A stretch of DNA of 64,000 nt from an uncultured Eubacteriales bacterium (GTDB taxonomy: Bacteria > Actinomycetota > Coriobacteriia > Anaerosomatales > PHET01). The notes under the pieces are model-generated. The model worked only from the letters and a program-made list of their open reading frames with translations, had not been told where the DNA came from and made no database searches. Numbering within the stretch: the first letter of the stretch is position 1; each line of letters opens with the position of its first letter. Where the stretch lies: contig CAZBLH010000003.1 of NCBI GenBank assembly GCA_964492775.1, forward strand, positions 28,572 to 92,571. The letters run 5' to 3'. Position numbers and translations under genes: made by a program. This document shows positions 38,346 through 60,411 of this stretch, piece by piece.

Positions 38346-38385
38346 TCACAGGCACCGATCGGTACCTGGGCCTTACTGGTTGACG

Positions 38386-39645: not shown

Positions 39646-39755
39646 GCTTGTTACTCCTTGTAGAGTCGAAGTAGAGATAGAAGTCTTTTGCATTCTTGCA
39701 CCTCCTTTCCAGACATGAATTTCTGACGGAACACACACAATTTCCATCACGGTAG

Positions 39756-39784
39756 ATACTACAGGCTCAAACGGCCGGGTGCAA
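39756..39784 (-). promoter_or_regulatory. Candidate sigma70-type promoter for cytochrome paralog 1 inside an AT-richer 336-bp spacer
   Basis: The minus strand reads TTGCAC-17 nt-TAGTAT, about 100 nt upstream of the start codon. The spacer 39646..39981 is visibly less GC-rich than its surroundings. Confidence 0.3.
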
Positions 39785-39936
39785 TGCTTTCTTTAACTAA
39801 TCTTAGCTTCGTTCATGACGGTAGCCGATGCGTCCCGATTGGTGGCAAGTCATCCTTATCGCTTCTGAACCTGCGACACCGTACCGGTCGTTTCTTGCGG
39901 ATCCACACCGCTCCCCTGGGCAGGCTCGGAGAATGA

Positions 39937-39966
39937 GGCGGGGTCGACCCTCAGGCCGACCCCGCC
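39937..39966 (-). terminator. Perfect 10-bp GC hairpin after the 14-heme cytochrome gene
   Basis: GGCGGGGTCG-N10-CGACCCCGCC starts 16 nt after the stop at 39982. There is no U-tract. Confidence 0.5.
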
Positions 39967-39981
39967 AGAGACACCAGACCC

Positions 39982-41733: not shown

Positions 41734-41801
41734 GCACCCCCCGCTTCGGTACAGTCACCGCTGACGTGCCTGTCTGGCGAGCAGCAACCGTCTGATTAAC
41801 C

Positions 41802-41831
41802 ATTATTGCACGCCTCTGTGATTGTTGTGAA
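41802..41831 (-). promoter_or_regulatory. Candidate promoter for the 14-heme cytochrome gene
   Basis: The minus strand reads TTCACA-18 nt-AATAAT, about 70 nt upstream of the start at 41733 and just downstream of the terminator hairpin. Confidence 0.25.
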
Positions 41832-41866
41832 GAAGTATTGCCGTTCGGCACGGTTTGCAGCACAAA

Positions 41867-41902
41867 GATGAAGGAGCGGCACTGAGGCGCCACTCCTTCA
41901 TC
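41867..41902 (-). terminator. Rho-independent-like terminator after the NHL gene
   Basis: GATGAAGGAG-N16-CTCCTTCATC is a 10-bp perfect stem. On the transcribed strand it is followed by TTTGTG. It lies about 37 nt after the stop at 41939. Confidence 0.55.
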
Positions 41903-41938
41903 TTGACTCACCGCATTTCCCGGGCTGCGAGCGGCCCG

Positions 41939-43210: not shown

Positions 43211-44101
43211 CTACTTCTCAACTCCGATCTTCTTCAGGCCAGCGAGCGCTTCCTCGTAGTCAGGGATGAACCGGAGGGCTTCTCGGAAGTCCTTCTCGGC
43301 ACCCTCGGTGTCACCGAGTTCGGCCTTGGCGTTACCGCGCTCAACCAGAACCCCCGCCTCGCGAGGATGGTTGGCCAGGTACGTGTCGAACATCTCTACC
43401 GCCTGCTCCCACTTGCCGGTCTCGGCGTAGATGCCTGCCCGGCTGAGCGCGCTGAGATAGTAGTTCTGATGCCGGCCGTAGGCGACGGCCCAGTTCTGGA
43501 ACTCGCCGCCCTCCTTGTACTCCTTCTCGTAGGCCTCGTCCGTCTTCTTCATGACCTGCTCGAAGATCTTCGCGGCCTCGTTTAGCTCGCCCTGGGCCTT
43601 CTTGAGTTCAGCCTCGACGAACAGCATCTGGGATCCCTGAGACTGGTCGATTTTGTCATTGGAGTTGACTTCGTCGATCACGTCCTGCGCGCGCGAGAAC
43701 TCCTCGGCGGTGATCAGGGCCAGAACGTACGACTGGTACTGGTCGGCGTTGGCGTCCTCCTGCTTGACGGAGGACTCCCACCCCGCGAGATCGCGCTCGG
43801 CCTGGGTGCGCGGCGCCTGGTCAGGTCCGATGAAGCCGAAGAACAGCGCGGCGGCGACGGTCATCAGCGCGCCGACGACGATGAGAGCCGCCGCCCACCC
43901 CATGACTCGAACGACCGGGTCCTCCCAGATTGAACGCCGTCGTCTGACCGTGACGATCTGGCCGGTACCGGTAGCGCGCTCCGGGGCGGCCTGCCCGGCC
44001 TGCCCAGCGTCCACCGGCCCGAGATCCTCAGACCTCTGTGCCTCGTCCACCATCGAATACCTCCGCCTTCGAGTCTCACCCGTGCTCGCCTGAGCGCGCA
44101 T
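43211..44101 (-). CDS. Membrane-anchored TPR-repeat protein
   Basis: 296 aa. One TM helix (VMGWAAALIVVGALMTVAAALFFGFI) is followed by TPR-like helical repeats (AYGRHQNYYLSALSRAGIYAETGKWEQAVEMFDTYL..). Confidence 0.75.
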   Translation of the reverse strand: MRAQASTGETRRRRYSMVDEAQRSEDLGPVDAGQAGQAAPERATGTGQIVTVRRRRSIWEDPVVRVMGWAAALIVVGALMTVAAALFFGFIGPDQAPRTQAERDLAGWESSVKQEDANADQYQSYVLALITAEEFSRAQDVIDEVNSNDKIDQSQGSQMLFVEAELKKAQGELNEAAKIFEQVMKKTDEAYEKEYKEGGEFQNWAVAYGRHQNYYLSALSRAGIYAETGKWEQAVEMFDTYLANHPREAGVLVERGNAKAELGDTEGAEKDFREALRFIPDYEEALAGLKKIGVEK

Positions 44102-44136
44102 GCATTGCCTCGTGTCCGCGCGTGTTCATGCGGGTG

Positions 44137-45261
44137 TCAGCTTCCTGCTCGGCCCGAAACCACATCGCGCAGCACGTCCGCTCTCGCCGCAGCGCGCGCC
44201 GTCCAGGAGCACTCCTCCAGTGCCGCCCGTCTGCCGCTGCGACCGGCCAAAACCAGTTCGTGCGCCGCAGCAGTGAGCTCGGTGACGCGGCGAGCGAGAT
44301 CGTCCGCATCGCCAACAGCGAAAGATGCGCCACATTCATATTGCTTCACGATTTCTTCAAGACCGCCGGTGTCAGCGACCACGACAGGCGTTGCGCAAGC
44401 CATCGACTCGTAGAGCTTCAGCGGCGAGAATCCCGTCTCCGCGCGCTCCGGGGCGTTGATAGGAATCACCGACACGACTGCGTTGGCGACGACGGATCCC
44501 AGCTTGGCGTAGGGGACGTGCCCGAGGTAGATGAGCGAATCGGGGTGGCGTTTGCTCGCCGCCTCGATCTCGGGTGTCAGGACCCCGTCGCCCGCCACCA
44601 CCAGAGGAAGATCGGCAGGCCACGTCTCACTCTCGAACGCGCGCACCAGCACCTCGATGCCCTGCCACGGTGCGAAGTTGCCGAAGAACACGGCGTAACG
44701 CTCGGGCAGCCCAGGGTAGCGTGGCGAGGTATCGCAGAAGACCTCCAGGTTCACGCCATTGGGGATCACCACCGTCGCCGCTCCGGGCGCCTGCGTGCGG
44801 ACCCATTCGGCAAGTCCCTGGGTCACGCAGACCACGCGCGCCGACATCGCGTACTGCGAGCGCTGCATGGCATCAAAGACCCAGCGCAGCGCCCGTGCCT
44901 GGGGCCAGGCAAGATAGAGATCGGCGTACGTCCCGTTGCACTCCTGCACGACGGGGATACCGCGACGGGAGGCTGCGCGCGAACACAGCCACGCGAGCGG
45001 ATGGCCGCGAACGTAGAGCGCGTCGTACTCGGCGAGATGCGCGATCAGCGTGCGCTGAAGCCGGAGCATCTCGGCGATTCGGCCAAGCGGCCCGGGAGCT
45101 CCGCCAGGGCCGTACTCGGGAAACCAGCGATCAACGACGATACCGGTCTCCTCGAGACCGGTGATGACCTCGTTGACCGCGGCCCAGCTGTCGAGGCCCT
45201 CCGCGACCTGCTGCAGGCTCAGGTATGCGATTCTGAGGGATTGACCCATTTCCTGCCCCAC
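44137..45261 (-). CDS. Glycosyltransferase family 4 (paralog of 26255..27382)
   Basis: 374 aa. LRIAYLSLQ...VVQECNG...SPLKLYESMACATPVVVAD is collinear with the module-A GT4. Confidence 0.85.
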   Translation of the reverse strand: MGQEMGQSLRIAYLSLQQVAEGLDSWAAVNEVITGLEETGIVVDRWFPEYGPGGAPGPLGRIAEMLRLQRTLIAHLAEYDALYVRGHPLAWLCSRAASRRGIPVVQECNGTYADLYLAWPQARALRWVFDAMQRSQYAMSARVVCVTQGLAEWVRTQAPGAATVVIPNGVNLEVFCDTSPRYPGLPERYAVFFGNFAPWQGIEVLVRAFESETWPADLPLVVAGDGVLTPEIEAASKRHPDSLIYLGHVPYAKLGSVVANAVVSVIPINAPERAETGFSPLKLYESMACATPVVVADTGGLEEIVKQYECGASFAVGDADDLARRVTELTAAAHELVLAGRSGRRAALEECSWTARAAARADVLRDVVSGRAGS

Positions 45262-45310
45262 GCGTCAGGGATTTCGGCCTGCACGATGGTATCACCCCTC
45301 GTGGGCTCGC

Positions 45311-46651
45311 TCACGCCGAGTCCGGCATCGCGCGGCGGCGGATGCCCTCGTCCGCGCCGGCTGCAAGGCCCAGGGTGAACAGGGTCGTGCAAGCGAACGC
45401 CGGCATGCTCGAAGCCGGCAGGGCCATCCCCGTCACCAGCCAGGCTACGGCGGTGAGCGGGCCGAGTAGAGGCGCGGAAGCGTACCTGCGCAAGCCAGTC
45501 CAGGCCAGTGCGAGCACGGCGACTCCAAGCAACAGAGGCCCGCCCCAGACAAGGCGCTCGAGAAAGTCGTTGTGGAGGGAGACGCCTGCGGCCCACTCCG
45601 GAGGCTGGAGCAAGCCGAACGGGTGCTCCCGCCACAGAGCAATGCCGATGCGCCACCGCGCGAGTCTGCCGGCGGTCAGTTCGTCTGCGGCAGTGATTCC
45701 CTGCTCGGCCGTCCCCGCCTGGACGACTGCCTCCACCGACCGATGCAGGGTCTCAATGCGCGGCATCACGACCACCGTGCCGAGAATGACGGTCACCAGG
45801 AGGAGGACCAGGAACGCCAGACGGTACCAGCTCCGTCCCTTGCCCCTCGCGAAGCTGCGGCGCCGGATCCAGTGCACCCCCGCGATCATGACGCAGACAA
45901 CCGACGCGATCAGCGCCGTCCTTGAGGCCGACAGCAGCACGATGCCGAGGCCGGTGAGCACAGCGGTCCCGCGGGTTCTCGGCTGTCTGCCGCGCCAGGT
46001 CACGCCCCAAATCAGCAGTACGACGCCGAGCGCACCGGTGAAGTTCGGATCGATGTCGAGCGCGGCCGTCCTGAAGGACTCGGTGGGGTCTCGTGTCCAT
46101 ACCTGAATCGCCGAGGGCAGGGCACCGTTCCATGCGGCGAGTCCCGAAGCGAGCGGATTGCCCAATCCGAGGAAGTCCAGACCCTCGGCCCCAGCGACGA
46201 TGAGCGTGACGATGCCCACGACCGCATACATCGGCCCCGGGTACCGGGGATTCGTGACACCTGCCGAGAAGCCGATGTAGATGCTCGCCGCAAGCGCCAC
46301 TGGGAGCAGGCCCGACTCCACGGAGTAGAGCAATGCACCAGCCGGACTGGACGCGTGTATCGCGCCCGTGAGCGCGCGGACTCCCACGTCTAACGCGACC
46401 AGAACCACCCACGGCCACAGAGCACGCGTTGACGCGAACGCGTGGGCGGCGCCTCCCGGAGCGAGCGATAGCAGGAACGCGGCGGCGATCACCAGCAGGG
46501 TCGTGACCCTGACGCTTCCATCGAGAAGCCACAGCCGGTTGGCAAAGAGTGCGTTCAGTCCTATGGCGGCGATACCGCCCACCTGCAGCACGTCCACCAT
46601 GCTCGGGCGTTGCGAACCGTTCATCCACGGCCTCGCGGGATTGGTTGACAT
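45311..46651 (-). CDS. Wzy_C-family membrane protein (O-antigen polymerase/ligase-like)
   Basis: 446 aa, about 11 TM helices. SASRTALIA...GRLARWRIGIALWREHPFG...SLHNDFLERLVWGG. It has no C-terminal soluble domain. Confidence 0.78.
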   Translation of the reverse strand: MSTNPARPWMNGSQRPSMVDVLQVGGIAAIGLNALFANRLWLLDGSVRVTTLLVIAAAFLLSLAPGGAAHAFASTRALWPWVVLVALDVGVRALTGAIHASSPAGALLYSVESGLLPVALAASIYIGFSAGVTNPRYPGPMYAVVGIVTLIVAGAEGLDFLGLGNPLASGLAAWNGALPSAIQVWTRDPTESFRTAALDIDPNFTGALGVVLLIWGVTWRGRQPRTRGTAVLTGLGIVLLSASRTALIASVVCVMIAGVHWIRRRSFARGKGRSWYRLAFLVLLLVTVILGTVVVMPRIETLHRSVEAVVQAGTAEQGITAADELTAGRLARWRIGIALWREHPFGLLQPPEWAAGVSLHNDFLERLVWGGPLLLGVAVLALAWTGLRRYASAPLLGPLTAVAWLVTGMALPASSMPAFACTTLFTLGLAAGADEGIRRRAMPDSA

Positions 46652-46795
46652 CGATTGTGAGTCCTTCGTTGCGAGTTTGCGGCCTCAGGCTGCGCCGCCT
46701 CAGGGACTGTTGTCAAGGTCACCCGCGGAGCAGGCCGGCCACGGAGCACGCGGGTGATACGATGCACGGCAGACTATGAGCGACCGAACGGGACC

Positions 46796-47920
46796 ATGAG
46801 CCGACTCCACATCACCCTGTGCACGCACCTTTTTCCCTCCGAGGTGACGGAGCTGTCCGGGCCGTGGCTCGCAGAGCAGGCGGACGCTCTCGCAGCTCGC
46901 GCCGATGTCTCCGTGCTCGCATGTCTTCGCCGCTGCCGAAACCGGGACGAGACGCGCGCCAGCGGCGTACGCGTGTTGTATCGGCAGACAGCCCTGGTGC
47001 CGGGTACTGGCCGGATTGCGCTGCTGGCTGCCGCGGTCCGGTACCGGGCGATCGCAGGTCGGCTCCTGGAGCGGCTCGATCCGCCGCCCCATGTGCTCCA
47101 TGCGCACTTCGGGTTCCCCGACGCCGTCGTGGTGGCAAGCGTCGCCCGACGGCTGGGGCGGCCCTGGGTCGCCACTCTGCACGGCGATGACGCGTTCTTC
47201 CTGTTACGGCGCCGTGATCCGCTCGGAGCGCTGATCCGACGGGCGCTCCATCAGGCTTCGGCGGTCGTATGTGTGAGCCCTGCGATGGGCGAAGCAGTAC
47301 GTGAGGTCCTCGGCGCGAACACCCAAGTGGAGATCATCGAGAACGGCTTCGACGACGCGCTGTTCGCACCCGGCGAGGGACCGGTCTCGGCGCGCCCGGG
47401 CGGCGTGCTGTTCGCCGGCACGCTCACGCCGGTCAAGAACGTCGACGTGCTCCTCCATGCCTACGCGTCCCTCGTGGACCCTCCCCCGCTCACGATCGTG
47501 GGAGACGGGCCTCTTCGCACGGCTCTCGAGCACCTTGCAGCTCAACTAGAGGTTGATGCTCGAGTCCTCTTTCTCGGAGTGCAGGGGCGCGAAGAGGTGG
47601 CGCGCCTGATGAGGGAGGCACGCGTACTCGTCATCCCGAGCGCCAGCGAGGGCTATGGGATGGTGGCGGCCGAGGCGCTTGCGTGCGGAACGCCCGTCGT
47701 AGCGAGCGATGTGGGCGGCCTGCCACGTATCGTGACCTCCGCTGAGGCGGGGGCACTGGTAGCGCCGGGCGACAGCGAGGCGCTTCGGGACGCGATCGAG
47801 TGCGTTCTCACGGCCGAGTGGGAGCCGAAGGCCGTCGCTGCGGCCTCGGGCGCGCGGCCCTGGCGCGAGCCTGCGCGGGAGCTGCAGGCGCTCTACGAGG
47901 ATGTTCTCAACGGGAGATGA
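46796..47920 (+). CDS. Glycosyltransferase family 4
   Basis: ATG 46796 (MSRLHITLCTHLFP). E-x7-E region is SEGYGMVAAEALACGTPVVASD. The track ORF begins at an upstream GTG (46754). Confidence 0.85.
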   Translation: MSRLHITLCTHLFPSEVTELSGPWLAEQADALAARADVSVLACLRRCRNRDETRASGVRVLYRQTALVPGTGRIALLAAAVRYRAIAGRLLERLDPPPHVLHAHFGFPDAVVVASVARRLGRPWVATLHGDDAFFLLRRRDPLGALIRRALHQASAVVCVSPAMGEAVREVLGANTQVEIIENGFDDALFAPGEGPVSARPGGVLFAGTLTPVKNVDVLLHAYASLVDPPPLTIVGDGPLRTALEHLAAQLEVDARVLFLGVQGREEVARLMREARVLVIPSASEGYGMVAAEALACGTPVVASDVGGLPRIVTSAEAGALVAPGDSEALRDAIECVLTAEWEPKAVAAASGARPWREPARELQALYEDVLNGR

Positions 47921-47961
47921 GCCGCCGGTGACGAGCAGCGCGGCATGCGCTCTCGCTGCCT

Positions 47962-49347
47962 CTACGACGCTTCGCGCTTGAAGTATCCGGAAGCCACACG
48001 AGCGAGTAGCCGCACGTCGTCGGGGGTCGGCACGAGGAGCCTGCGCAACGGCACCCCGGTGTCTCTGACCATCGTGTACAGGATGGCAACGAAGTACGTG
48101 GCGTACGAGACTGACGAGGCTACGGCTGCGCCCGCCGCCCCCACTCTCGGCACAAGCACGAAGTTTCCGAGTGCGTTCAGCACCGCGACCGCGACCGATA
48201 CCTTCCAATACACGATGCCACGCGCGACCTGATAGTAGAGGATCAGCGAGGTCAGGCCGTACAGCATCGTCCCGGGCAGGAGCAGGTAGAAGATCCTGAC
48301 GGACGGTGCGAACGTGCTTCCGAAGATGAGCGGGAGCGCGACTGGGACCACGACCACCAGGGCTGCCGCCACGACGACCGTGATCAGTATCGAAAGCCGG
48401 AGGCTACGTGCGCTGAAGTCAAGCGCGCTTTCGTGACTCACCCGCGCCGCTTGAGCCTGAATCGCCTGCCCCACGGCGTTGGGGATGTACCAGGCCAGCT
48501 CGGCGAAGCTCACGCCCACCGAGTAGAAGCCGACTGCAGCGGACCCGGAGAGCCAGCCGAGCAACAGTATGTCCTGCCGCATGTGCGTGAAGTCCGCCAA
48601 CCCGGACAGATGTGCCCTGATCGAGTGGCCCGCGCCCCTTCGCATCGCCCGGAGATCAACCCGGATCCGGCCGATACGCCCACGCCCCCAGTACGTCATG
48701 CTGGCGAGCCCGGCGAGTGATCCCGCAATCGTCGCGATGAGTACGCCGGCAACTGACAGACGCCCCGCCCACGCCAGAATCAGCGACAGCATTAGCGTCA
48801 CTGCGGTGCTGACGATCCCGGTAGCCGCCTGAGGCCCGAGTCCGCGCAACCCCACCACTACGGAACCGAACCAGGCAAGGATCAGCCCCACCGCGAATGT
48901 GGCGACCGCGAGGAGCGCGATGCGCAGTGGCATGTCGGGCACCACGGCAAGCGGCCCGAACAGCAGGAAGATGATGGGCACCGCCGTGATGGCGGTCATA
49001 ACCGATGCAAGCGCAAGGGTGTTGCCCGTCGCCACTCCTGGCGTGATCTCCTTACGCGACAGGTAGTAGAGATTCGACGTGGAGATGCCGAGATTGCCGA
49101 AGACCAGAGCGATCGCGACCGTCTGTTGCACGACCGAGAGCGCTCCTTTGCCGGCTGGGCCGAGGGACCGGGCGATGAGCGCACTCACGACGACGCTCGA
49201 CACGAGCGCGACAGCCTGTGAGATCAGCGCGACGGCAGTCCCCGACCCAAGGCGGATCTCATCCGCCTTTTCGTCTGGGCCGACATGGGGCTCCGAGGAG
49301 GTCGAAGCCGGCGGACGCGGCACATCCGAATCCTGCACCGCCGCCAT
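47962..49347 (-). CDS. Wzx-type (MOP superfamily) oligosaccharide flippase
   Basis: 461 aa, about 12-14 TM helices. It is collinear with the C-terminal part of 28265..30235 (GKGALSVVQQTVAI...STSNLYYLSRKEITPG). Confidence 0.82.
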   Translation of the reverse strand: MAAVQDSDVPRPPASTSSEPHVGPDEKADEIRLGSGTAVALISQAVALVSSVVVSALIARSLGPAGKGALSVVQQTVAIALVFGNLGISTSNLYYLSRKEITPGVATGNTLALASVMTAITAVPIIFLLFGPLAVVPDMPLRIALLAVATFAVGLILAWFGSVVVGLRGLGPQAATGIVSTAVTLMLSLILAWAGRLSVAGVLIATIAGSLAGLASMTYWGRGRIGRIRVDLRAMRRGAGHSIRAHLSGLADFTHMRQDILLLGWLSGSAAVGFYSVGVSFAELAWYIPNAVGQAIQAQAARVSHESALDFSARSLRLSILITVVVAAALVVVVPVALPLIFGSTFAPSVRIFYLLLPGTMLYGLTSLILYYQVARGIVYWKVSVAVAVLNALGNFVLVPRVGAAGAAVASSVSYATYFVAILYTMVRDTGVPLRRLLVPTPDDVRLLARVASGYFKREAS

Positions 49348-50246
49348 CAGACCATGCCTTCGGCTGTGCCGTCGTCAGAAGCGGGGGGTGTCGAGGAAGG
49401 GCCGGCATTGACCCATTCCTCAAGCGACCGCGAAGACCTCCCCCAGGGGACGAACGACAGCCTGCCTGAGTCACAATGTGCGCACCAAGGCACCGGTCGA
49501 AGCAGGAAGTCCATGATCTTCCAGCCGTCAGACGCAGACATGATGTCGCTCGAGCTCTGACCCTCATCACGCAGTCCCTGGAGGCCGAAGCGTTCCTCCA
49601 GCACATCGGAGAACGCGACGTACGCACATGGGTACAGCCGACCGTTTCTGACGATGGGACAGTTGTTGTAGCCCTGGCAGTGCCAGAAGGACTCAACCGG
49701 GTCGTGGCGTAGATCGAGATCGACCGGCAAGCGGAAGAACTCCTCCCGGAACACGGTCCACTCGACTACCGCTCCGTGCTTCCTGCCAAGCTCGTTGATC
49801 TCATCGACCGGCAGGCCGATCGGATAGTTGTCGCACAGCAGGACGATTCCCGTCTCGGCGAGGGCTCGCCACGCGAGCTCGCTCATGCGAGTGACCAGGA
49901 CGCCATTGGTCATGAGATACATCTTGAGATCGGGGAACGCGTCCTTGGGAAACGCCTTCCTTGCTGAGTACAGGAATCTCGGGAGATCAGGATGCAGGAG
50001 CGGCTCCCCTCCCAGCAGGTAGATCTGGTCAACCGCTCGGAACAACCGGGCCACGGCCCGCATCTCTGATTCGAACACGTCAGGGTCGGCGAACCACGGC
50101 CGGGCGATATTGCTGAAGTGGGCACAACCCCTGCAGTTGAGGTTGCAGTGATCGGTGATGTGGATCTCGAAGTGATGCAGGCGCGGTTTGCGTCTCAGGA
50201 TGTAGCGATCCACCCAGCGTCGAACGCGCGACTCCGTGGAGCTCAT
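49347..50246 (-). CDS. Radical SAM enzyme with C-terminal Cys-rich (SPASM/twitch-like) region
   Basis: CNLNCRGC is a CX3CX2C cluster motif, and GGEPLL is present. C-terminal cysteines are CQGYNNCP...YPC and CAHC. I prefer ATG 50246 (33 aa before the cluster) because it leaves a divergent promoter gap. The ORF is open to 50474. TGATG junction with the flippase gene. Confidence 0.75.
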   Translation of the reverse strand: MSSTESRVRRWVDRYILRRKPRLHHFEIHITDHCNLNCRGCAHFSNIARPWFADPDVFESEMRAVARLFRAVDQIYLLGGEPLLHPDLPRFLYSARKAFPKDAFPDLKMYLMTNGVLVTRMSELAWRALAETGIVLLCDNYPIGLPVDEINELGRKHGAVVEWTVFREEFFRLPVDLDLRHDPVESFWHCQGYNNCPIVRNGRLYPCAYVAFSDVLEERFGLQGLRDEGQSSSDIMSASDGWKIMDFLLRPVPWCAHCDSGRLSFVPWGRSSRSLEEWVNAGPSSTPPASDDGTAEGMV

Positions 50247-50397
50247 CACGGACTTCGGGAACGCGCGGATGTAGGCGCGACGGGCAACCGCGAACCAACG
50301 CTCGGGCACTGCCTTCCTGATCAGACCCTGAACTCGAACAAGCACGTCCGCGATCCGCTCCCGAGACTCAACGAACCGCAGGCTGCGGCCCTTCAGC

Positions 50398-51750
50398 ATG
50401 CTAGACTTCAAGGCCATGGACAGCAACGCTCGGACCACACCCGCGCGGTTGACCGACATTCTGCAGGTCAACACCTCCGATCTCAGCGGAGGCGCCGAGA
50501 AGGTATCGCTCGGCTTGCACCGCTACTACCTCCAGCGAGGCCTTCGCTCGACCCTCGCCGTGGGCTGGAAGCGCACGCTCGAGCCCGGTGTCGTGGAGAT
50601 TCCGCAGCTACCGTTCCGCAGTGCCTGGGCACGAATGTTCGGCGAGAATCGCCGAGCTGGCCTGCTGGGAACGGCAGGCCGCGCGGCCGCAGAACCACTG
50701 CGCTACCTTTCGCGGCTGGCGGGACACGAGGATTTCGGCTTTCCCGGGACGCTGCATGTCGATGAGCTCGCTCCCCGGGCTCCTCAAGTACTGCATCTGC
50801 ACAACCTGCACGGTGGCTACTTCGACATCCGGGCCTTGCCAGAACTCACAGCACGCTACCCAACCATCTACTCGCCCCACGACCCCTGGGCGCTCAGCGG
50901 GCACTGCGCGCATCCGATGGATTGCCCGAGATGGCGCACGGGATGCGATACCTGCCCGGACCTGCAGCGCTATGTTCCCATCGCGCGCGACTCGAGTGGA
51001 GCGAACTGGGCCACCAAGCGCGAGGCGTTGGAACGCAGCCGCTTCTACCTGGCATCACCGTCCAGGTGGATGCTGGACATGTTCCTCGATGCCAGGCTGG
51101 AGTCCTCCATCATCGATGCTCGGGTGATCCGCAACGGCATCGACTCGGCGGTCTTCTCGCCCGGCGACAGGGGTTCGGAGCGAAGGACGCTCGGCATCGC
51201 GGAGGACGCGACGGTCATCGTCACCTCGGCCCGAGCCGGCGTCGCCGGCGACTTCAAAGGCGCCGACATCCTCGAGGACGCATTCGAGATCGCCTCCCAA
51301 AGCGGCATCGATCGTCAGGGCATCATCGTGCTTACCCTGGGCGACACGGCGCCACCGAGAAGGGTCGGCTGCTTCCGCATCGAGTCGGTGCCGTACACGG
51401 CCGACCCGACTCGCGTGGCCAGCTACCTGCGTTCGGCCGACCTTTACGTCCACCCCTCAAGAGCCGAGAACTACTCGCTCTCGATCCTCGAGGCGCTCGC
51501 GTGTGGCACGCCGGTGGTGGCAAGCGACACTGGCGGCACCCCCGAGGTCGTAGAGGATCGCAGGGCTGCCCTGCTGTTCCCGAGTGAGGACAGCGCCGCG
51601 CTCGCCCAGGTGCTCGTCTGGCTTCTGCAGGCGGATCACCGGCTCGACGATCTTGCCGAGAAGGCTCGTGATGACGCCGCCCGCTGCTACACTCTCGAAC
51701 AGCAGGCAGAAGCGTATCTGGACTGGTACGGCCAGATAATCGGCGCGTGA
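50398..51750 (+). CDS. Glycosyltransferase family 4
   Basis: 450 aa (alternative ATG at 50416). HLHNLHGGYF, C..W..GC..CP, and PSRAENYSLSILEALACGTPVVASD (E-x7-E). Confidence 0.85.
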   Translation: MLDFKAMDSNARTTPARLTDILQVNTSDLSGGAEKVSLGLHRYYLQRGLRSTLAVGWKRTLEPGVVEIPQLPFRSAWARMFGENRRAGLLGTAGRAAAEPLRYLSRLAGHEDFGFPGTLHVDELAPRAPQVLHLHNLHGGYFDIRALPELTARYPTIYSPHDPWALSGHCAHPMDCPRWRTGCDTCPDLQRYVPIARDSSGANWATKREALERSRFYLASPSRWMLDMFLDARLESSIIDARVIRNGIDSAVFSPGDRGSERRTLGIAEDATVIVTSARAGVAGDFKGADILEDAFEIASQSGIDRQGIIVLTLGDTAPPRRVGCFRIESVPYTADPTRVASYLRSADLYVHPSRAENYSLSILEALACGTPVVASDTGGTPEVVEDRRAALLFPSEDSAALAQVLVWLLQADHRLDDLAEKARDDAARCYTLEQQAEAYLDWYGQIIGA

Positions 51751-51811
51751 CTCCGCTGCGCGCATATCGGCACGTGTCTGCCGCGCGGACGCGAAGGAGG
51801 ACAGGGCGGTC

Positions 51812-52573
51812 TTGAGGCAGGGTCGCTTCGGGATACTGATGGGCCTCGGCCCGCGGGGACTGCTTCGGGCCCTCAGGCGCAGGCTGCTCAATCCACGCTC
51901 CGGTGAGGTCGACTTCGGTGACCTGCGCTCGCTGGAGCCGGTGAGCCGGCTGTTCGGCATGGACCGAGGCACACCCATCGACCGCCACTACATCGCCGTG
52001 TTCATCGAGTCCAACAAGGACGCTGTCCGGGGCCGATGTCTCGAAGTCGCAGACCGCGCATACACGATCGAGTACGGTGGCGACTCCGTCACTCAGAGCG
52101 ATGTCCTGTACGCGGAAGGCTTCGACGACGCTCATTCTGAGCAGGCCACGGTCGTGGGAGACCTGACCGACCTGGCCTGCGTCGGCGACGGGACCTACGA
52201 CTGTGTGATCGTCACCCAGACTCTCCAGTTCATCTACGACTTCCGACAGGCGGTTCGGGAAATCGAGCGCGTCCTGAAGCCGGGCGGAACCTGCCTCTGC
52301 ACGATCTCGGCGATCAGCCAGATCAGCCGCTACGACATGGATCGTTGGGGCGAGTACTGGCGAATGACGTCGCTGGCTGCCGATCGTGTCTTCTCTGATG
52401 CCTTCGCTGGAGGCACAGTCGACGTCCGCTCCTTCGGCAACGCCCTGAGCGCCGTCGCGGGGTTGCAAGGTCTCTCGGCCGAGGAGCTGTCCGCAAGAGA
52501 GCTCGAATACCACGATCCCGACTACGAGATGCTCGTGTGCATCCGCGCGACCAAGGGTTCCCCACTGTGCTGA
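51812..52573 (+). CDS. Class I SAM-dependent methyltransferase
   Basis: 253 aa. CLEVAD...YDCVIVTQTLQFIYD...LKPGGT is typical of Methyltransf_11/23-type enzymes in glycan loci. Confidence 0.78.
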   Translation: MRQGRFGILMGLGPRGLLRALRRRLLNPRSGEVDFGDLRSLEPVSRLFGMDRGTPIDRHYIAVFIESNKDAVRGRCLEVADRAYTIEYGGDSVTQSDVLYAEGFDDAHSEQATVVGDLTDLACVGDGTYDCVIVTQTLQFIYDFRQAVREIERVLKPGGTCLCTISAISQISRYDMDRWGEYWRMTSLAADRVFSDAFAGGTVDVRSFGNALSAVAGLQGLSAEELSARELEYHDPDYEMLVCIRATKGSPLC

Positions 52574-53604
52574 GCCCAACCGCCCTCCGCGTATTGTCAC
52601 GCACGCGCAGACGCGTGCTCGGCCTGCTCGGCGGATCTGCGGTAGTGCTGATCTACCACCGGGTGGCCACCCTTGAGCGGGACCCACAGGGGCTCTCCGT
52701 CCCGCCCGCCGTCTTTCGGGAACAGATCGCGACGATCACGGAGCGGTACCCGGTCGTACCTCTGGGACACCTGGTGCGGCTGCTGGCGAGAGGTCAGCGC
52801 ATGCCCCGACGGTGCGTCTACATAACCTTCGACGACGGCTACGCCGACAACCTCATTCACGCGAAGCCTGTGCTCGAAGCTGCGGGGGCATCGGCCACGT
52901 TCTTCGTGACGACCGACCGCTTGAGCGATCCCGCGGAGCAGTGGTGGGACGAGCTCGATCGGCTGCTTCTGTCCCCTTGCAGCCTTCCCGAGAAGCTCAT
53001 TCTTCCCATCGGAGACGCGCTCGACTGCTCATCCTGCCGAGATTGGGACGCCAGCCCGGCGCGCGCCTCGGCAGGATGGACGGTGCGCGATAGCACCCGT
53101 ACGCCGAGACAAGCGCTGTACGCCGAGCTCTGCGACCGGGTGAGCCAGCAAACCCCGGCCGAGCGAAGCAGAACGCTCGAGTGCCTACGCGAGCAGATCG
53201 GCGCGACCGATGGCCCTCGAGCCGAGAACCGGCACCTCACCGCAGGCGAGATCGGCGAACTCGACACCGGCGTGACCTCTGTCGGTGTCCACACCGCGTC
53301 GCACCCGAGGTTGGCGACACTCAGCGCTTCCCAGCAGCTCGGACAGATCGCTGACAGCAAGCGGCTGCTCGAAGAGATCTGCGGAAGGACGATGGATCTG
53401 TTCTCGTACCCGTACGGCGACCCTGATTCGTACACGCCTGAGACGGTGCAGATGGTGAGACGTCTCGGTTTCGCCGGCGCGGTGGCGACCCATCATGGCA
53501 TCACCCACCGCCTCACTGACCCCTATCTCATTCCGCGGTACCCGGCTGCGGGGCTGAGCGCCCCGGAGCTGGCGGACTCGCTCGCCACGTGGTTCGGCGC
53601 GTAG
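52567..53604 (+). CDS. Polysaccharide deacetylase (NodB/CE4 family)
   Basis: GTG 52567 overlaps the upstream stop. ITFDDGYADN, HTASHPRL and FSYPYG are CE4 motifs. Confidence 0.82.
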   Translation: MLSPTALRVLSRTRRRVLGLLGGSAVVLIYHRVATLERDPQGLSVPPAVFREQIATITERYPVVPLGHLVRLLARGQRMPRRCVYITFDDGYADNLIHAKPVLEAAGASATFFVTTDRLSDPAEQWWDELDRLLLSPCSLPEKLILPIGDALDCSSCRDWDASPARASAGWTVRDSTRTPRQALYAELCDRVSQQTPAERSRTLECLREQIGATDGPRAENRHLTAGEIGELDTGVTSVGVHTASHPRLATLSASQQLGQIADSKRLLEEICGRTMDLFSYPYGDPDSYTPETVQMVRRLGFAGAVATHHGITHRLTDPYLIPRYPAAGLSAPELADSLATWFGA

Positions 53605-54589: not shown

Positions 54590-55885
54590 CTAGTAGTTCG
54601 CAAAGGATCTGTCGTCGTCATGGGTGGTGTCCCACAGCGGCCAGTATCCGAACCCGTGGCACTTGAGGCACACACCGTCATTGATGTTGCCGGCGTGACC
54701 ATCGTGGAAGCCAGCGGCGTCCTCGATCACTGTTCGGGTGTTGATGCGGTTGGGCGCGAGGCCTCCAACCGCCGTCCCATGAGTGATTCCGAGCCCGGTC
54801 TGCCCGTTCCACATCTCGGTCGGCGTGGGCTTGCCAGCAGCGTCACGGTACGTCACGTCACCGCCGTACATCCAGAGGTTGCCGGACTCGACATCTTTCT
54901 CGGTCTGCACGAGCGTACCGGCCGGGCGTGTCCACTCCCAGACGGTAATGCCGCGGTTGGCATGCGGAAACGCACTCGAGTTGGTTGCCTTACCCACCAT
55001 GTCGTGGCATGACGCGCACTTGCTGTCGCTGGTGTCACCGATTGCCTGGTGGCACCCTCCTGTGCTGCAGTGAGTCGAAGAGCCCGACGTACTGTGACCA
55101 GTCATGACCTGGTCCAGGCTGGTGGATTGAGCGGGGTCAGATGCGCGAAGCTCACCGTAGCCGTCGGCATTGACCGCGAACTGCGAGGAGCTGTGGCACC
55201 CAGAAGCGCCGCAGGTGTAACCAGTGACCATCGCTCGGTTAGAGGCCTTCTGCGACGCGGTCAGCAGACTGAAGTCGCCCCCGAGTGTCGTGGCATCGAC
55301 GATCGCGGGCCTGACGTTGCCTGCGGCAACCGCGGCTGAGATCGCAGCGTCATTGCCGGACGTCAGGTTGAACGCGGAAACAGCCCCGTACCCGGAGCTC
55401 ACTCCGCCGTGGACACCCGCATGGCAGGCGCCCAGACAGTTGAAGCTCCTGTGCGGGCCGCCTTCCGTGTAAGTCGAGGGCCACTCGACCAAAGCCGTCG
55501 AAACGGGATTGGCTCCATTCGGCGTGTGGCAGGCGACGCACGCCTGAGCGCCCGGCGTGAGCTTCCAGTAACTGCCGACACCGGCTGTGGTCCGATCTGA
55601 TTGTGCGCGGTGTGCGGAGTGGCAGACGGCGCACTTGGTAGTGTTGACCGCATAGCCGCCATGGGCCGTGCTCCCATTCGTGCTCGTACCGCCGTTGTAG
55701 TTGGCCGAGATCGCATTGGCGCCCTGCCATGACAAGTAGCCTGGCGCAGTATTCGTCTGAGTTGTTTCGGCACTCACGCGCACTGGGTTGTTGTACGCAT
55801 AACCCGCGTATTTGGCCGACGCCACCCCGCTGAATGCAAGCACGAGGGCGATGGCGATGGCCATTGTGAACAGGATCTTTTTCAT
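54590..55885 (-). CDS. Secreted multiheme cytochrome c, 7 heme motifs (paralog 3)
   Basis: 431 aa. Signal peptide MKKILFTMAIAIALVLAFSGVASA|KYAGYAYNNPV, with GGAGGAGG before the ATG. Motifs are CAVCH, CVACH, CLGACH, CGASGCH, CSTGGCH, CASCH and CLKCH. It is collinear with paralogs 1 and 2. Confidence 0.88.
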   Translation of the reverse strand: MKKILFTMAIAIALVLAFSGVASAKYAGYAYNNPVRVSAETTQTNTAPGYLSWQGANAISANYNGGTSTNGSTAHGGYAVNTTKCAVCHSAHRAQSDRTTAGVGSYWKLTPGAQACVACHTPNGANPVSTALVEWPSTYTEGGPHRSFNCLGACHAGVHGGVSSGYGAVSAFNLTSGNDAAISAAVAAGNVRPAIVDATTLGGDFSLLTASQKASNRAMVTGYTCGASGCHSSSQFAVNADGYGELRASDPAQSTSLDQVMTGHSTSGSSTHCSTGGCHQAIGDTSDSKCASCHDMVGKATNSSAFPHANRGITVWEWTRPAGTLVQTEKDVESGNLWMYGGDVTYRDAAGKPTPTEMWNGQTGLGITHGTAVGGLAPNRINTRTVIEDAAGFHDGHAGNINDGVCLKCHGFGYWPLWDTTHDDDRSFANY

Positions 55886-55948
55886 ACCTCCTCCAAATGC
55901 CGGAAGGTGTTCAGCCGTGAGACTCCCGTCTCACATTCGCCGATATCG

Positions 55949-56902
55949 CTACTTGTGGCATACCCAGCAGTTCTCCTTGCCGACCACAGTCGTGGCACCG
56001 GTGCCGCCATTGTGGCATCCCGCAGTGGCACAATCCGCCCTAGCTGTGGAGAGTGCCGGCGTTGCATAGCCTTCCGTGCCGTTGAACTGCTTGTCGAGGA
56101 CCTTGATCAGTATGTAGGCGAGGTCCGCGCACAGGCGCGCGCATCCGTCTGATCGGGTGTAACCAGGAATGTCCTTGACGGCCTTCGTGAACTTCTCCAG
56201 CGAGTTGTGGCACTGGAGGCTCCCCAGTTTGCTCGGGGGTACCACCACATTCGGCTTCGGCATGTTGGCAGCCACGCGCTCCCGCAGCCACTCCGAGTTG
56301 CCGACCTCGGGCATGGGGTGGGGAATCTGACCGTACGCCGAAAAGACATCGTCAATCTGGGCGCGCTTGTTGACCATCTGGCAGACACCAGCGACCGCAA
56401 GCGCGACGCCACATGTCTGACCCCAAGAATTCATGCCCGCAGCGCCGTAGGAAACGGGCGTGACGCCCACGGCTACGTAGTTGCGATCGGCGCCATTCTG
56501 CGTAAACGGCCCGTACTCGCCACCGATGTAGTCCCACTTGTAGAACTTGGTATCGTCCTGGGCGTGCAGTGCTTCTTGTAGGACCGAAACTGGTCCCATC
56601 CAAGTACCGCAGCCTCAACCGCCGCCGGCCTTGTACCGCTCGTAGGAGCGTGTCGCAGCCTCGCGAGCAGCCTCCTCCAAAGAGCCGAACGCAGCGACCC
56701 AGCCAGCAGTCGTCGGCCACTCGCAGGCACCGTCCACCTGCGACGGCACAAGTGCAGCATCTGCCCCGGGAGCGCCGAATACCACGCTGGATCCGTGGGC
56801 CAGCTGCCCCACGGTGTAGCCGGCCGCGATGCTGCCGACGCCCAGCAACCACTGCCTTCTGGAAAGGCCTCGCTCATCAACCTCGGACTTGCTCATTGAC
56901 AT
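55949..56902 (-). CDS. TAT-signal C_GCAxxG_C_C / split-Soret-cytochrome-like redox heme protein, single reading frame interrupted by one in-frame TGA (56617..56615): selenocysteine candidate or pseudogene
   Basis: Track ORFs 56615..56902 and 55949..56599 are in the same frame (303 nt apart), separated only by TGA plus 5 sense codons. The upstream part carries a twin-arginine signal (SRRQWLLGVGSIAAG). The downstream part has the family block GMNSWGQTCGVALAVAGVC and the C-terminal heme motifs CATAGCH and CWVCH. Confidence 0.6.
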
Positions 56903-57007
56903 ACCTCCTTCTTGTGTCTCAGTTAATAACAGCGCGAGGCGTCGTCACCTCCCTCTCCTCCGCTCTCCCCGTTCTTGCTTGAGCTCTGTTTCGGTCCATC
57001 CCGAACA

Positions 57008-57718
57008 TCACTCCTGCGGTGTTAATTCCTTCTCGAAGTCGATCCCTTGTGGACCCAAATCGGGGTCAAGCTGTCGTGCGGTCCTAAAGTCCGCGGATGC
57101 GCTGATGTCCGCACCCCGTTCCAGATAGGCGCGACCCCGGTTGAAGTAGGCCATCGCAAAGCCTGGGTGCAGCTTTATTGCTTTCGAGAAGTCCTGGATG
57201 GATTGATCCTTAATCCTGTCTGCCTTGAGCCGCCAAGCATATCCACGGTTGTTGTAGGCGACGGGATCGTCGGGATTGAGCGCGATGGCGGCGGTGTAGT
57301 CCTCAATGGCTCTGTCGAGCTCGCCCTTCTCCTGCCAAGCGAGGCCTCGGTTGTTAAGGGCGATCGAGTCCAAAGGGTCGAGTTCGGCGGCGCGTGTGTG
57401 GTCCTCGATCGCTCGGTCGAAATCCCCCTCGTGCTGCCTTATGACTCCGCGGTTGTTGAGCGCTCTGGCATTCGCAGGGTCAAGTTCGATGGCCTTCGTG
57501 TAGTCATCCACCGCCGGGCCCAAGGCACCGCTCTCCTGATGTGCGACACCGCGCTTGTACCAGTACTCCGCATTCTCCGAATCCAGTTCGATCGCTCGGG
57601 AGTACTCCGACACTGCACGTTCCGGGTTGTCCTTCTCCATCCAGTCGAGCCCACGCTGAAAGAAGGTTGCGGCATCGTTCAGATCTACTGCGCTATCTCC
57701 CGGCACTCTCAGTCCCAT
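57008..57718 (-). CDS. Cytoplasmic TPR-repeat protein
   Basis: 236 aa with about six 34-aa TPR units (A(I/V)ExY(S/T)xAIELDP.N..A.NNRG). No signal peptide. Confidence 0.85.
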   Translation of the reverse strand: MGLRVPGDSAVDLNDAATFFQRGLDWMEKDNPERAVSEYSRAIELDSENAEYWYKRGVAHQESGALGPAVDDYTKAIELDPANARALNNRGVIRQHEGDFDRAIEDHTRAAELDPLDSIALNNRGLAWQEKGELDRAIEDYTAAIALNPDDPVAYNNRGYAWRLKADRIKDQSIQDFSKAIKLHPGFAMAYFNRGRAYLERGADISASADFRTARQLDPDLGPQGIDFEKELTPQE

Positions 57719-57780
57719 CCCTATCCGTCCTCACGTGAGCCCTTCCGGGCAACCTTGCATCGAAGAAATGTGGCGTTTCG

Positions 57781-60411
57781 CTACTCGACCAGTCCCTTGA
57801 GCGCCTGCGCGACCGGTTCCGAGACGGCACCTGTACCGCCGACGATCCTGATTGCGGAAACGGAGCTCTTTCGCGTGGACAAGAAGCCCGCCACGGGACC
57901 CGGAATCGTGTTGGGAGAAACCAGAAGCAGAACGTGTCTGGACGAGGCCGTCGCTGAACCTACCGCCAGGGCGTCGGGGTAGTTCATGCCCGTGGAAACG
58001 TAGACGCCCGAGTCGCTGAGGATGTGCTCCCGTATCGCGTACTCGGCTACACGCACGCCCGTCGAGTACCTGTCGGTTCCGGCGATTCGGTCCGGGCTCG
58101 GCAGTTGCCTCTCCACAACGCCCGACACTGCGGACGACCCGCCCAGCACGACAGTTCGGCTCACCGATAGAGACGAAAGCGCGTTCTTGGTGATGGGCGG
58201 AAGGGAGGCGCCCCTGACAAGCAGGATCGGCGAACCTTCTGCGGCCGCGACTCCGGCTGCAGACAGCGCGTCCGAGAAGCCCTCGCCGGTTGCCACGTAC
58301 GCCTTCTCGAATCCGCTCACGCCTCGAACGATCTTGAGCTCGTTCGCGATGGCGACGGCGGTGCCGTAACGATCGCTGCCGGCTACTCGCTTGACCGACA
58401 ACCCCATCGTCCGCAGACCATTCTCGACCGACACCGAGACAGCCGGCGGGCCTCCGATGATGAGCGCCTGCTTAGCTCCCACCCTGGTTATCTCAGCGCT
58501 GACCGCGGCAGGGACCCCGCCGGATGGTACGAGCAGTATGGGTGCCTGAAGCGCGTGAGCGAGCGGTGCTGCAGCCAGCGCGTCAGGGTAGTTCATTGCG
58601 GTCGCCACAATAACCGTGTTCGCTTCGGCGAATGTGTCTTTGGAGATCTCGACGGCGGTCTTGATCCTGTCAGCGCCGGCGATCCTTCGCGCCAGGACCC
58701 CGGTCGTGAAGCTGACACTCGTCCCTGCGAACTGGTTGCCGCGCGCGTCCTGTAGGGCGTTCGCAGGAATAGCCAGCGTGTAGGAGTCCCGAAGCTGCAG
58801 GGGCTTCTCGGGCATCACGTGCAGGGTCCGATCGCCAGAACTGCCGATGACAACGGAGCAGGGGACCTGAGCACCCTGCCCATCGACCAGCCCGATGCTC
58901 CCGAAGGCCGATCCCGCCTTGAGCGCTTCATCGAATGTGACGAACAACGCCTGATCAACCGACACGCCCCGCGCGTCGTTCGGCGGGTTCGCCGAGACGA
59001 CGACCGGTGGAAGCGTGTCAGGGGTGGACAACTCGAATTGGACGGCTCTGGAGGCGTTCCCCCACGCGTCTTTCACCGCTGAAGCGGGAACGAGGACCGT
59101 GTAACGCCTATTGTTGCTGAGCGGGCCTCTCGACCTGATCTCGAGCAGGGGCCCGACTATAGACGTGTCGATGGCAACCTGTTTACCTGCGGAGTCCTTG
59201 ACGGTGATCTGATCGTAGGTCGATCCGGCCTGCACGGGTGCACTGTGGCTGATCGTGAGCGTGAGGTTGACAGGGATCTCCGTGGACCAAGGCGCAGGAT
59301 TCACGGAGGTGATTCCGAGCGTCTGACCTGTCGCATTGTTGCCCCAGCCAGCGAATGAGCCGTCCGGAAGCACGGCAAGGGAGTGCTGTCCTCCCGCACT
59401 GATCGCGGTCGCGTCAGTCAAGGCAGCGGGGACCACAACGGACGGGTCGGTGAAGAGCTCAAGGACGCCGCCCCAGGCGACTACGCTGCCGTCGGACTTG
59501 AGCGCCAAGGAGTGCCGAAGCCCCGCTGCGACCTGGATTACGTCCGCCAGCGTGGCTGGAACGCTGCACTGCTCCTCGGCGTCCCTGCCCCAAGCGACGA
59601 CGGTGCCGTCGGACTTGAGAGCGAGCGAGTGCAGTCCCCCCGCTGCGATCGCCACTACATTCTCGAGTCCGCTCGGCACGGCGCACTGACCCGAGGCATT
59701 GCTGCCCCAAGCGACGACGGTGCCGTCGGACTTGAGAGCGAGCGAGTGGTCAAAACCGGCCGACACCGCGATGACGTCACTCAGGCCCGGCGGTACCTCG
59801 CACTTCGCAGCGTTGTTGCTCCCTGCCGCAGTGACAGTCCCTCCCGCGTTGAGGACCAGCGTGTGGTCGTAGCCCGCTGCTATGGCGATGGCCTCATCGG
59901 TATCTGGCGGGACATACGACAACTCGCCCTCGCCGCCCCATGCCACTAGCGTCCCGTCGGAGCGCAGGGCCACCGAGTGGGTGTAACCGGCCGCAACAGC
60001 CACGACATCATCGAGTCCAACAGGGACGTCACATTGGCCGTAGAAGTCGTCCCCCCACGCCACGACACCGCCGTCCGGCCCTATTGCCAGGGAGTGCATG
60101 TCTCCCGCCGAGACCCTCTCACCGGCTGACCGGGCATCCTGAACCGTCAACGCGTGGACTCGCGCGGGTACTGCAAAGACGCTCATCGACAGCAGCGCTG
60201 CGCTCAGAGTCACCGAAACCATCCGGCTCCACGCGCGACCGCTACGCTTCGCCGAAGAGCCCTCTCTCAGTCGAGGCATCAACCTCGCGCCAGCCCTCTG
60301 CATCTTCTGGAGCTCCTGTCCCGTTCCTCGGTCACCCGGCACAAGCGCGCGCCGAGCAAATCGCCTCAGCAGCATCAGGGGTTTGCCGAATCGGCCGGGG
60401 ACCGAGGGCAC
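57781..60411 (-). CDS. Surface protein: signal peptide + 7-bladed RCC1-like propeller + 2 SbsA-type Ig-like domains + 3 CWB2 cell-wall-binding repeats
   Basis: 876 aa ORF. The likely true start is Met at 60303 or 60222 (signal MVSVTLSAALLSMSVFAVPARVHA). RCC1 blades are G..HSLALKSDGTVVAWG.N..GQC.VP. The Ig-like part is PPVVVSANP.... Three R(I/V)AG.DRY.TAV modules are typical of CWB2 (PF04122-like). Confidence 0.85.
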   Translation of the reverse strand: MPSVPGRFGKPLMLLRRFARRALVPGDRGTGQELQKMQRAGARLMPRLREGSSAKRSGRAWSRMVSVTLSAALLSMSVFAVPARVHALTVQDARSAGERVSAGDMHSLAIGPDGGVVAWGDDFYGQCDVPVGLDDVVAVAAGYTHSVALRSDGTLVAWGGEGELSYVPPDTDEAIAIAAGYDHTLVLNAGGTVTAAGSNNAAKCEVPPGLSDVIAVSAGFDHSLALKSDGTVVAWGSNASGQCAVPSGLENVVAIAAGGLHSLALKSDGTVVAWGRDAEEQCSVPATLADVIQVAAGLRHSLALKSDGSVVAWGGVLELFTDPSVVVPAALTDATAISAGGQHSLAVLPDGSFAGWGNNATGQTLGITSVNPAPWSTEIPVNLTLTISHSAPVQAGSTYDQITVKDSAGKQVAIDTSIVGPLLEIRSRGPLSNNRRYTVLVPASAVKDAWGNASRAVQFELSTPDTLPPVVVSANPPNDARGVSVDQALFVTFDEALKAGSAFGSIGLVDGQGAQVPCSVVIGSSGDRTLHVMPEKPLQLRDSYTLAIPANALQDARGNQFAGTSVSFTTGVLARRIAGADRIKTAVEISKDTFAEANTVIVATAMNYPDALAAAPLAHALQAPILLVPSGGVPAAVSAEITRVGAKQALIIGGPPAVSVSVENGLRTMGLSVKRVAGSDRYGTAVAIANELKIVRGVSGFEKAYVATGEGFSDALSAAGVAAAEGSPILLVRGASLPPITKNALSSLSVSRTVVLGGSSAVSGVVERQLPSPDRIAGTDRYSTGVRVAEYAIREHILSDSGVYVSTGMNYPDALAVGSATASSRHVLLLVSPNTIPGPVAGFLSTRKSSVSAIRIVGGTGAVSEPVAQALKGLVE
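59286..60126 (-). repeat. Tandem 117-nt (39-aa) coding repeats = RCC1 blades
   Basis: The string CCCCAAGCGACGACGGTGCCGTCGGACTTGAGAGCGAGCGAGTG occurs at about 59588 and 59705, with a diverged copy at about 59471. The period is 117 nt. Confidence 0.8.

Follow-up and report, generated by a model that had tools for sequence, protein, structure and literature searches.

Split-Soret cytochromes c are predicted substrates of the twin-arginine translocation (Tat) system (PMC4429474, PMC3623810). The C-GCAxxG-C-C family (PF09719 / TIGR01909) is listed as a predicted selenoprotein family, with WP_012158890.1 as its representative, in Table 1 of PMC9312934. This table, the most complete published list of prokaryotic selenoprotein families, also includes a Cytochrome_C554-type cytochrome and is without a split-Soret cytochrome, and our literature search found no report joining split-Soret proteins with selenocysteine (Sec). 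Insertion of Sec by SelB with Sec-tRNA(Sec) is the standard bacterial mechanism, and a selenocysteine insertion sequence (SECIS) element immediately 3' of the UGA together with a Cys/Sec pair are the standard criteria for predicting bacterial selenoproteins (PMC9312934). Here we analysed a stretch of 64,000 nucleotides (nt), hereafter the window, from contig CAZBLH010000003.1 of an uncultured bacterium of the Coriobacteriia (assembly GCA_964492775.1), in which two called open reading frames (ORFs) very probably constitute a single gene for a selenoprotein of 317 residues. Judged from its sequence, the in-frame TGA of this gene would be read as Sec through a bacterial SECIS, and the product would be a Tat-exported protein of the split-Soret type.

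Translation of the minus strand from 56902 to 55949 gave 317 codons with the TGA at 56617..56615 as the sole internal stop, which confirmed an earlier sequence-only reading in which the two ORFs had been taken as one frame. The ORF listing splits this frame into 56902..56615 (95 amino acids, aa) and 56599..55949 (216 aa). The context of the TGA, set off here by hyphens, is ...RSYERYKAGGG-TGA-GCGTWMGPVSVLQEAL. In the upstream piece, an N-terminal twin-arginine motif with the hydrophobic stretch SRRQWLLGVGSIAAG fits the Tat substrate pattern S/T-R-R-x-F/W-L, from which export is predicted. The Tat signal noticed before was thus found again, while the description of this piece as just a signal plus a linker did not hold: it also bears the conserved block ACEWPTTAGW...AAREAATRSYERYKAGGG, and the core domain's first conserved helix falls within it. 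The downstream piece bears GQTCGVALAVAG, CATAGCH and CWVCH, with the family core and haem motifs as first described. The features of the proposed gene are given below.

55949..56902, minus strand: complete proposed selenoprotein gene of 317 codons and a TAG stop, with the TGA read through; predicted Tat-exported split-Soret-type cytochrome
56846..56863, minus strand: Tat motif S-R-R-Q-W-L, residues 14-19; conserved in all orthologs as SRRQ[WM][LF] and also in remote homologs
56615..56617, minus strand: in-frame TGA, proposed Sec codon, residue 96; present in 13/13 distinct orthologous loci and aligned with Cys in homologs
56411..56413, minus strand: Cys164 in GQTCG (TCGVALA), second signature Cys; invariant in orthologs, Cys in 73/74 remote homologs
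56210..56212, minus strand: Cys231 in LQCHN, third signature Cys; invariant in orthologs, Cys in 74/74 remote homologs
56141..56143, minus strand: Cys254 in SDGCARL, fourth signature Cys; invariant in orthologs, Cys in 74/74 remote homologs
56012..56032, minus strand: first haem motif CATAGCH (CX4CH), residues 291-297; aligned with SCGECH of the split-Soret cytochrome structure 1H21, Cys and His invariant in orthologs
55955..55969, minus strand: second haem motif CWVCH (CXXCH), residues 312-316; aligned with CTPCH of 1H21, kept in 73/74 remote homologs

In a single sequence, a frame that gene callers break into two ORFs is how a broken gene would appear, whether through a nonsense mutation (for example TGC or TGG to TGA) or through a sequencing or assembly error in one genome. 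Homologs were searched with the read-through protein as query, Sec being written as Cys. The search returned 15 database relatives of 63-86% identity, each a fragment of 189-227 aa spanning the downstream two thirds only. Every homolog in the clade is thus called as a truncated downstream fragment, and therefore the break is clade-wide, not specific to the window. Ortholog DNA was then fetched around these relatives and around two far more distant ones (P0016 and P0018) from a profile search, and the comparison covered 13 distinct orthologous loci of 35-86% protein identity, which came from independent metagenomes and assemblies (JGI, ENA, Logan and NCBI). The TGA stands at exactly the same codon in all 13 loci, and each of them conserves an upstream ORF of 87-99 aa with the twin-arginine motif. 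The position carries a sense codon in no ortholog of the clade, and no Cys-containing ortholog was found down to 35% identity. The junction consensus is RY[KR][AS][GA]GG-TGA-G[CN][GA][TA]W[MFY]GPV[ST]VL, and the ortholog of 35% identity (L023) reads FVAGGG-TGA-ANAAYHALVSVI (FVAGGG-TGA-ANAAY).

Pairwise differences at codon positions 1/2/3 were 0.17/0.14/0.40 upstream of the TGA and 0.21/0.15/0.40 downstream. Since this pattern is alike on the two sides, both flanks evolve as coding sequence in the same frame, under purifying selection. A systematic error common to all assemblies is implausible given their divergence. The nonsense mutation and the base-call error, which the sequence-only reading had kept as alternatives, are therefore excluded by conservation across independent assemblies, and we give a pseudogene or artefact practically no chance. 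The whole clade appears to have fixed Sec, and the Sec-containing clade may be wider than the 13 loci examined. Several more distant relatives (P0019, P0020, P0024, P0025 and P0027; E = 1e-19 to 1e-10) are likewise called as fragments, about 200-216 aa long, with starts just past the position of the first conserved Cys. Contig scans returned only one partial locus among the genome contigs (a Coriobacteriia metagenome-assembled genome, 91% identical fragment) and one locus among the metagenome contigs, and the orthologs were obtained through look-ups of exact proteins.

The TGA could also be a genuine stop between two products, a 95-aa Tat-signal peptide and a separately initiated 216-aa cytochrome, with the hairpin behind it serving translational coupling or mRNA stability. 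The window and most orthologs do have an ATG 15 nt past the TGA, but four lineages (L011, L016, L020 and L023) have F, Y or H instead of Met102, the called start of the downstream ORF. The sequence from the TGA to this ATG shows no ribosome-binding site, and the five codons in between are conserved in frame. The downstream part is without an export signal, although its haem c sites need export. The homologs are single polypeptides; their alignment runs without a break through the site, and Cys stands opposite the TGA. Two separate products are thus highly improbable. Because the TGA is conserved, its flanks are coding and the downstream Met is not kept in all lineages, a nonsense mutation, a sequencing error and a two-gene reading are all very unlikely, and we return to a single read-through gene.

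What residue the TGA stands for was approached through remote homology. A profile of nine full-length orthologs matched Protein Data Bank entry 1H21, a split-Soret cytochrome c, with E = 2.5e-10. This match spans residues 153-318 against residues 75-233 of 1H21, and a weak extra N-terminal stretch puts U on Cys; in both the profile and the single-sequence alignments, the Sec position falls on the Cys of KGFGCGFGAF in 1H21. A profile search of 1.84 billion representatives yielded 124 relatives. Of these, 74 are remote homologs of full length, reaching into the N-terminal region; 72 of them have Cys in the Sec column, and most keep the haem motifs. The signature order C ... CGxxxG ... C ... C was found in the protein, with U96, C164, C231 and C254 invariant in the orthologs and the corresponding columns Cys in 72-74 of the 74 remote homologs. 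On these alignments, the predicted Sec is the replacement of the first of the four conserved family Cys.

The central claim of the sequence-only reading, a Sec-coding TGA in a Tat-exported haem protein of the split-Soret / C_GCAxxG_C_C type, was supported by the conserved TGA, the Cys of the homologs and the match to 1H21, and the ortholog alignment that it had proposed as a check gave TGA at every orthologous locus, Cys in nearly all remote homologs and a conserved hairpin. It was wrong in placing the TGA two residues before the first conserved Cys, where in fact the TGA sits at that Cys. A U-x-C (U-G-C) redox pair, conceivable under that placement, was rejected: 6 of the 13 lineages have Asn in place of the Cys at +2.

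Membership of the two curated families was also tested. NCBIfam NF047622 matched with E = 4e-14 and 52.6 bits, far under its equivalog cut-off of 400, and Pfam C_GCAxxG_C_C (PF09719) matched residues 154-265 only, with 23.7 bits and E = 5.5e-5, under its gathering threshold of 27. With both scores under the curated thresholds, the protein is, by profile comparison, a distant homolog of the split-Soret type and a member of neither NF047622 nor PF09719. Two C-terminal haem c sites of the 1H21 type were found, the spacing of the first being non-canonical. This first site varies in the orthologs as CATAGCH, CAVSGCH, CAVSACH or CKTAGCH, all CX4CH, and is canonical CXXCH in the divergent L023 and in 1H21 (CGACH and CGECH, respectively).

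A SECIS-like hairpin after the TGA had been noticed in the sequence-only reading. It proved to be real, with a stem longer than first described, and its parts are as follows.

56561..56614, minus strand: full predicted SECIS-like stem-loop directly 3' of the TGA, as the minimum-energy fold; lower stem variable among orthologs
56579..56598, minus strand: apical hairpin U-GGGACC / AGUUUC / GGUCCU-A; stem 56598..56592 with 56585..56579, loop 56591..56586

The minimum-energy fold of 56620..56560 has -26.3 kcal/mol against -18.2 +/- 2.9 for dinucleotide shuffles (z = -2.8), and 1 of 200 shuffles was as good. The spacing from UGA to loop is 23 nt, the second loop base is G, and a TGA with the core motif occurs once in the window where 0.01 occurrences are expected. 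The hairpin-UGA distance and the G in the first two loop positions agree with the bacterial SECIS consensus that Zhang and Gladyshev reportedly gave in 2005. TGA and hairpin were found again in every fetched ortholog, the hairpin core GGACCAGTTTCGGTCC is identical in 19 fetched loci, and the apical hairpin is present in the minimum-energy fold of all 7 orthologs folded. Paired cells across the named structure amounted to 88.6%, against 29-48% in controls with the 3' partners slid.

Conservation in this region goes beyond the protein. The core codons are GGA, CCA, GTT, TCG and GTC, of which GGA (9% of its family), CCA (10%) and GTT (13%) are rare in these genes, yet these three are invariant. 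Of 73 columns in which the amino acid is invariant and at least four-fold degenerate, no more than 11 have one and the same codon in all 11 sequences, and 6 of these 11 codon-invariant sites fall within Sec-1..Sec+11. Third-position identity at codons for the same amino acid was 93% in Sec-1..Sec+11 and 66% in the rest of the gene. In L023, where the peptide GPVSVL is changed to ALVSVI, the hairpin is still present as CACUG-GUUU-CAGUG, with compensatory changes in two pairs (G-C to C-G and C-G to U-A) alongside the amino-acid changes. By its conserved synonymous sites and these compensatory changes, the hairpin is held by selection at the RNA level.

The Arg-Arg pair of the Tat motif (56854..56859, minus strand) is always encoded by AGA AGG, being identical in 11 of 11 orthologs of the codon alignment, which was made without L020 and L023. 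AGA and AGG are expected to be rare at 65% G+C, and beyond the SECIS region very few sites besides this pair are fully codon-invariant. The constancy might reflect pausing of the ribosome, or a signal in the RNA, at the Tat motif.

In summary of the criteria above, an in-frame UGA conserved among orthologs, coding flanks, a downstream stem-loop and Cys in homologs were all found at this locus. Several points weigh against the selenoprotein reading. The apical stem is identical in 12 of 13 sequences, and the covariation comes from one divergent lineage and from the variable lower stem. A scan of 55000..58000 with Rfam at E <= 10 gave three chance matches, none of them on the hairpin; to our knowledge Rfam holds no general bacterial SECIS family, and a match was not expected. 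The AlphaFold model of the downstream part is of low confidence, with a mean pLDDT (predicted local distance difference test score) of 46. Neither selA, selB, selD nor tRNA-Sec was found within the window or the fetched loci, and support for Sec is at the level of sequence. As to the four Cys, Abreu et al. reportedly described them in 2003 as holding a non-haem iron centre, of the [2Fe-2S] type, in the solved split-Soret cytochrome.

For the machinery, ARAGORN found no tRNA in the window and a single tRNA-Ser in 14 loci. Pfam and NCBIfam scans of about 40 window ORFs likewise found no Sec machinery; what they returned were his and leu genes, dnaE, a large cluster for polysaccharide, cytochromes and a two-component system. 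This absence from the window and the fetched loci is what speaks for recoding of the UGA to some other residue, either by hairpin-stimulated near-cognate read-through (Trp, Cys or Arg) or by lineage-specific reassignment. However, ordinary TGA stops end hisD, hisZ, dnaE, leuB and the adjacent TPR gene in the same window, and therefore UGA is not reassigned genome-wide. Moreover, a near-invariant Cys in homologs is the hallmark of Sec sites, and a Cys codon would do if Cys were wanted. Recoding to a residue other than Sec thus has a small chance, and insertion of Sec is the reading we retain.

Further selenoprotein genes were sought in the window and the loci, either as in-frame TGAs between gene-like flanks or as in-frame TGAs followed at the distance of a SECIS by a GUU-loop hairpin, and nothing credible came up. 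One candidate, the TGA at 37259..37261 (minus strand) at the start of a 423-aa 11-haem cytochrome ORF, has the hairpin GGGAGCU-GUUUG-AGCUUCU at a SECIS-like distance; it was judged to be due to chance because only 50 codons are open upstream, and these run in another frame over the last part of the gene before it. Methionine sulfoxide reductase A (PMSR) and Zn-peptidase genes lie a few kb upstream of the conserved block in two loci (L006 138..668 and L011 117..647). MsrA is a known Sec/Cys family, and in both loci it is called full-length with an ordinary TGA stop.

The following mechanism is proposed. The hairpin 56614..56561, with its loop AGUUUC, would act as the SECIS and recruit SelB with Sec-tRNA(Sec), so that the UGA would be translated as selenocysteine-96. 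The resulting protein would consist of the SRRQWL signal, a core with the thiol-type positions U96, C164, C231 and C254, and the two C-terminal haem c sites. A non-haem cofactor would be loaded in the cytoplasm before Tat export, as has been proposed for split-Soret cytochromes (PMC4429474, PMC3623810). At the cell envelope, the protein may pass electrons to and from the multihaem cytochrome encoded next to it, the two belonging to an electron-transfer chain outside the cytoplasm of a monoderm member of the Coriobacteriia with many multihaem cytochromes. If the four Cys hold an iron centre, selenium would most likely ligate that centre or tune its redox behaviour beside the stacked haems, which is the least secure step. 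That Sec96 is a direct ligand of the non-haem iron centre is a tentative suggestion, which we consider possible and somewhat doubtful; it would imply a selenium-ligated iron-sulfur site wired to stacked c-type haems in a Tat-exported protein, serving envelope (possibly extracellular) electron transfer in subsurface Coriobacteriia.

The genes around the Sec gene are also conserved. Three neighbours recur among the orthologous loci.

54590..55885, minus strand: downstream neighbour, 431-aa secreted multihaem cytochrome with 4 CXXCH, 1 CX3CH and 2 CX4CH motifs; 63 nt downstream
57008..57718, minus strand: upstream neighbour, 236-aa TPR-repeat protein (Pfam TPR_1, E = 4e-42); own stop TGA
57781..60411, minus strand: conserved neighbour, 876-aa protein with RCC1-like propeller, Big_5 and three CW_binding_2 domains; cell-wall-anchored, S-layer-like

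The 431-aa cytochrome is probably in the same operon as the Sec gene. Wherever a locus extends far enough for this to be seen, a homolog of 414-432 aa comes after the Sec gene; L023 has instead a 483-aa multihaem gene just upstream. Except in L022 and L023, the TPR position is taken by a gene of 237-251 aa, which makes 11 of the 13 loci. The 876-aa protein is syntenic in L001, L002, L005, L006, L008-L012 and L020, and is also adjacent in the divergent L022.

Elsewhere in the window, a second cytochrome cluster (35981..44101, minus strand) encodes three proteins rich in CXXCH motifs: one of 423 aa (11 motifs), one of 318 aa (12 motifs), which is weakly similar to NrfH, and one of 583 aa (12 motifs). 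Also encoded are a protein with NHL repeats, a TPR protein and a paralog of the 431-aa cytochrome that is 454 aa long and shares its N-terminus, ...AKYAGYAYNNPV. The pairing of TPR protein and cytochrome mirrors that of the Sec locus. This cluster interrupts a very large cell-surface polysaccharide region (18952..53604) with at least four Wzy_C (O-antigen ligase-like) genes, several GT2/GT4 glycosyltransferases, flippases, polysaccharide deacetylases and a radical-SAM gene. The probable host lineage is known for Fe(III) reduction (PMC9686372). From its G+C content of 65% and its 11- and 12-haem cytochromes, we infer that the window resembles the Fe(III)-reducing OPB41/Anaerosomatales lineage (PMC9686372).

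The copies of this clade that were checked in public databases are split, truncated or unnamed. Two members of the 90%-identity cluster of the window protein, a partial Coriobacteriia protein of 78 aa and a JGI fragment of 61 aa, gave the only names recovered, "hypothetical protein" in both cases. We therefore regard the gene as a previously unannotated selenoprotein candidate; its decoding would be conventional, its superfamily already has predicted Sec forms, and it would constitute a new Sec-containing subfamily. Recognition of the Sec codon restores a complete exported cytochrome and would add a selenoprotein family to the Actinomycetota (Coriobacteriia). Because the predicted Sec replaces one of four invariant Cys that reportedly hold the non-haem iron centre in the solved homolog, the clade would be a natural system in which to follow the effect of selenium. 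The tight linkage of the gene to multihaem cytochromes and to a cell-wall-anchored protein points to a selenium-dependent part of Gram-positive envelope electron transfer.

The locus can be set beside four known systems. Like bacterial SECIS elements of the E. coli fdhF type and the general consensus, the hairpin is a stem-loop immediately 3' of the UGA inside the coding sequence (PMC9312934), with its apical loop about 20-25 nt from the UGA and G/U in the first positions. It differs in that its sequence is unrelated to the E. coli elements, and SelB binding is predicted here.

The split-Soret cytochrome c (Ssc) of Desulfovibrio desulfuricans ATCC 27774 (1H21) is homologous to the window protein and has the same feature order: a twin-arginine signal, the G-x-C motif, WG..CG, a CH motif, an R..C motif and two C-terminal haem c sites. 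In Ssc, the first conserved Cys stands where the window protein is predicted to have Sec, and the first haem site is CXXCH, whereas it is CX4CH in the window protein. Compared with Ssc, the window protein has an extra conserved segment of about 40 residues between signal and core, and insertions around residues 115-150. The host of Ssc is a sulfate-reducing Desulfovibrio, whereas that of the window protein is a monoderm actinobacterium (Coriobacteriia).

With the C-GCAxxG-C-C family, the window protein has the four-Cys signature of a superfamily in common, some members of which are already predicted to contain Sec. The listed proteins are small, of about 140 aa, and are not known to have haem sites or an export signal. 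We found no literature text on which Cys is Sec in the listed selenoprotein of this family.

The Tat-exported selenoenzymes FdhA (periplasmic formate dehydrogenase) and [NiFeSe] hydrogenase carry Sec at a cofactor-binding position and fold in the cytoplasm. The proposed protein would be alike in having Sec at the cofactor site of a Tat-exported redox protein. These enzymes have other folds and cofactors, and their Sec ligates Mo/W or Ni, whereas a non-haem iron centre near c-type haems is proposed for the protein described here.

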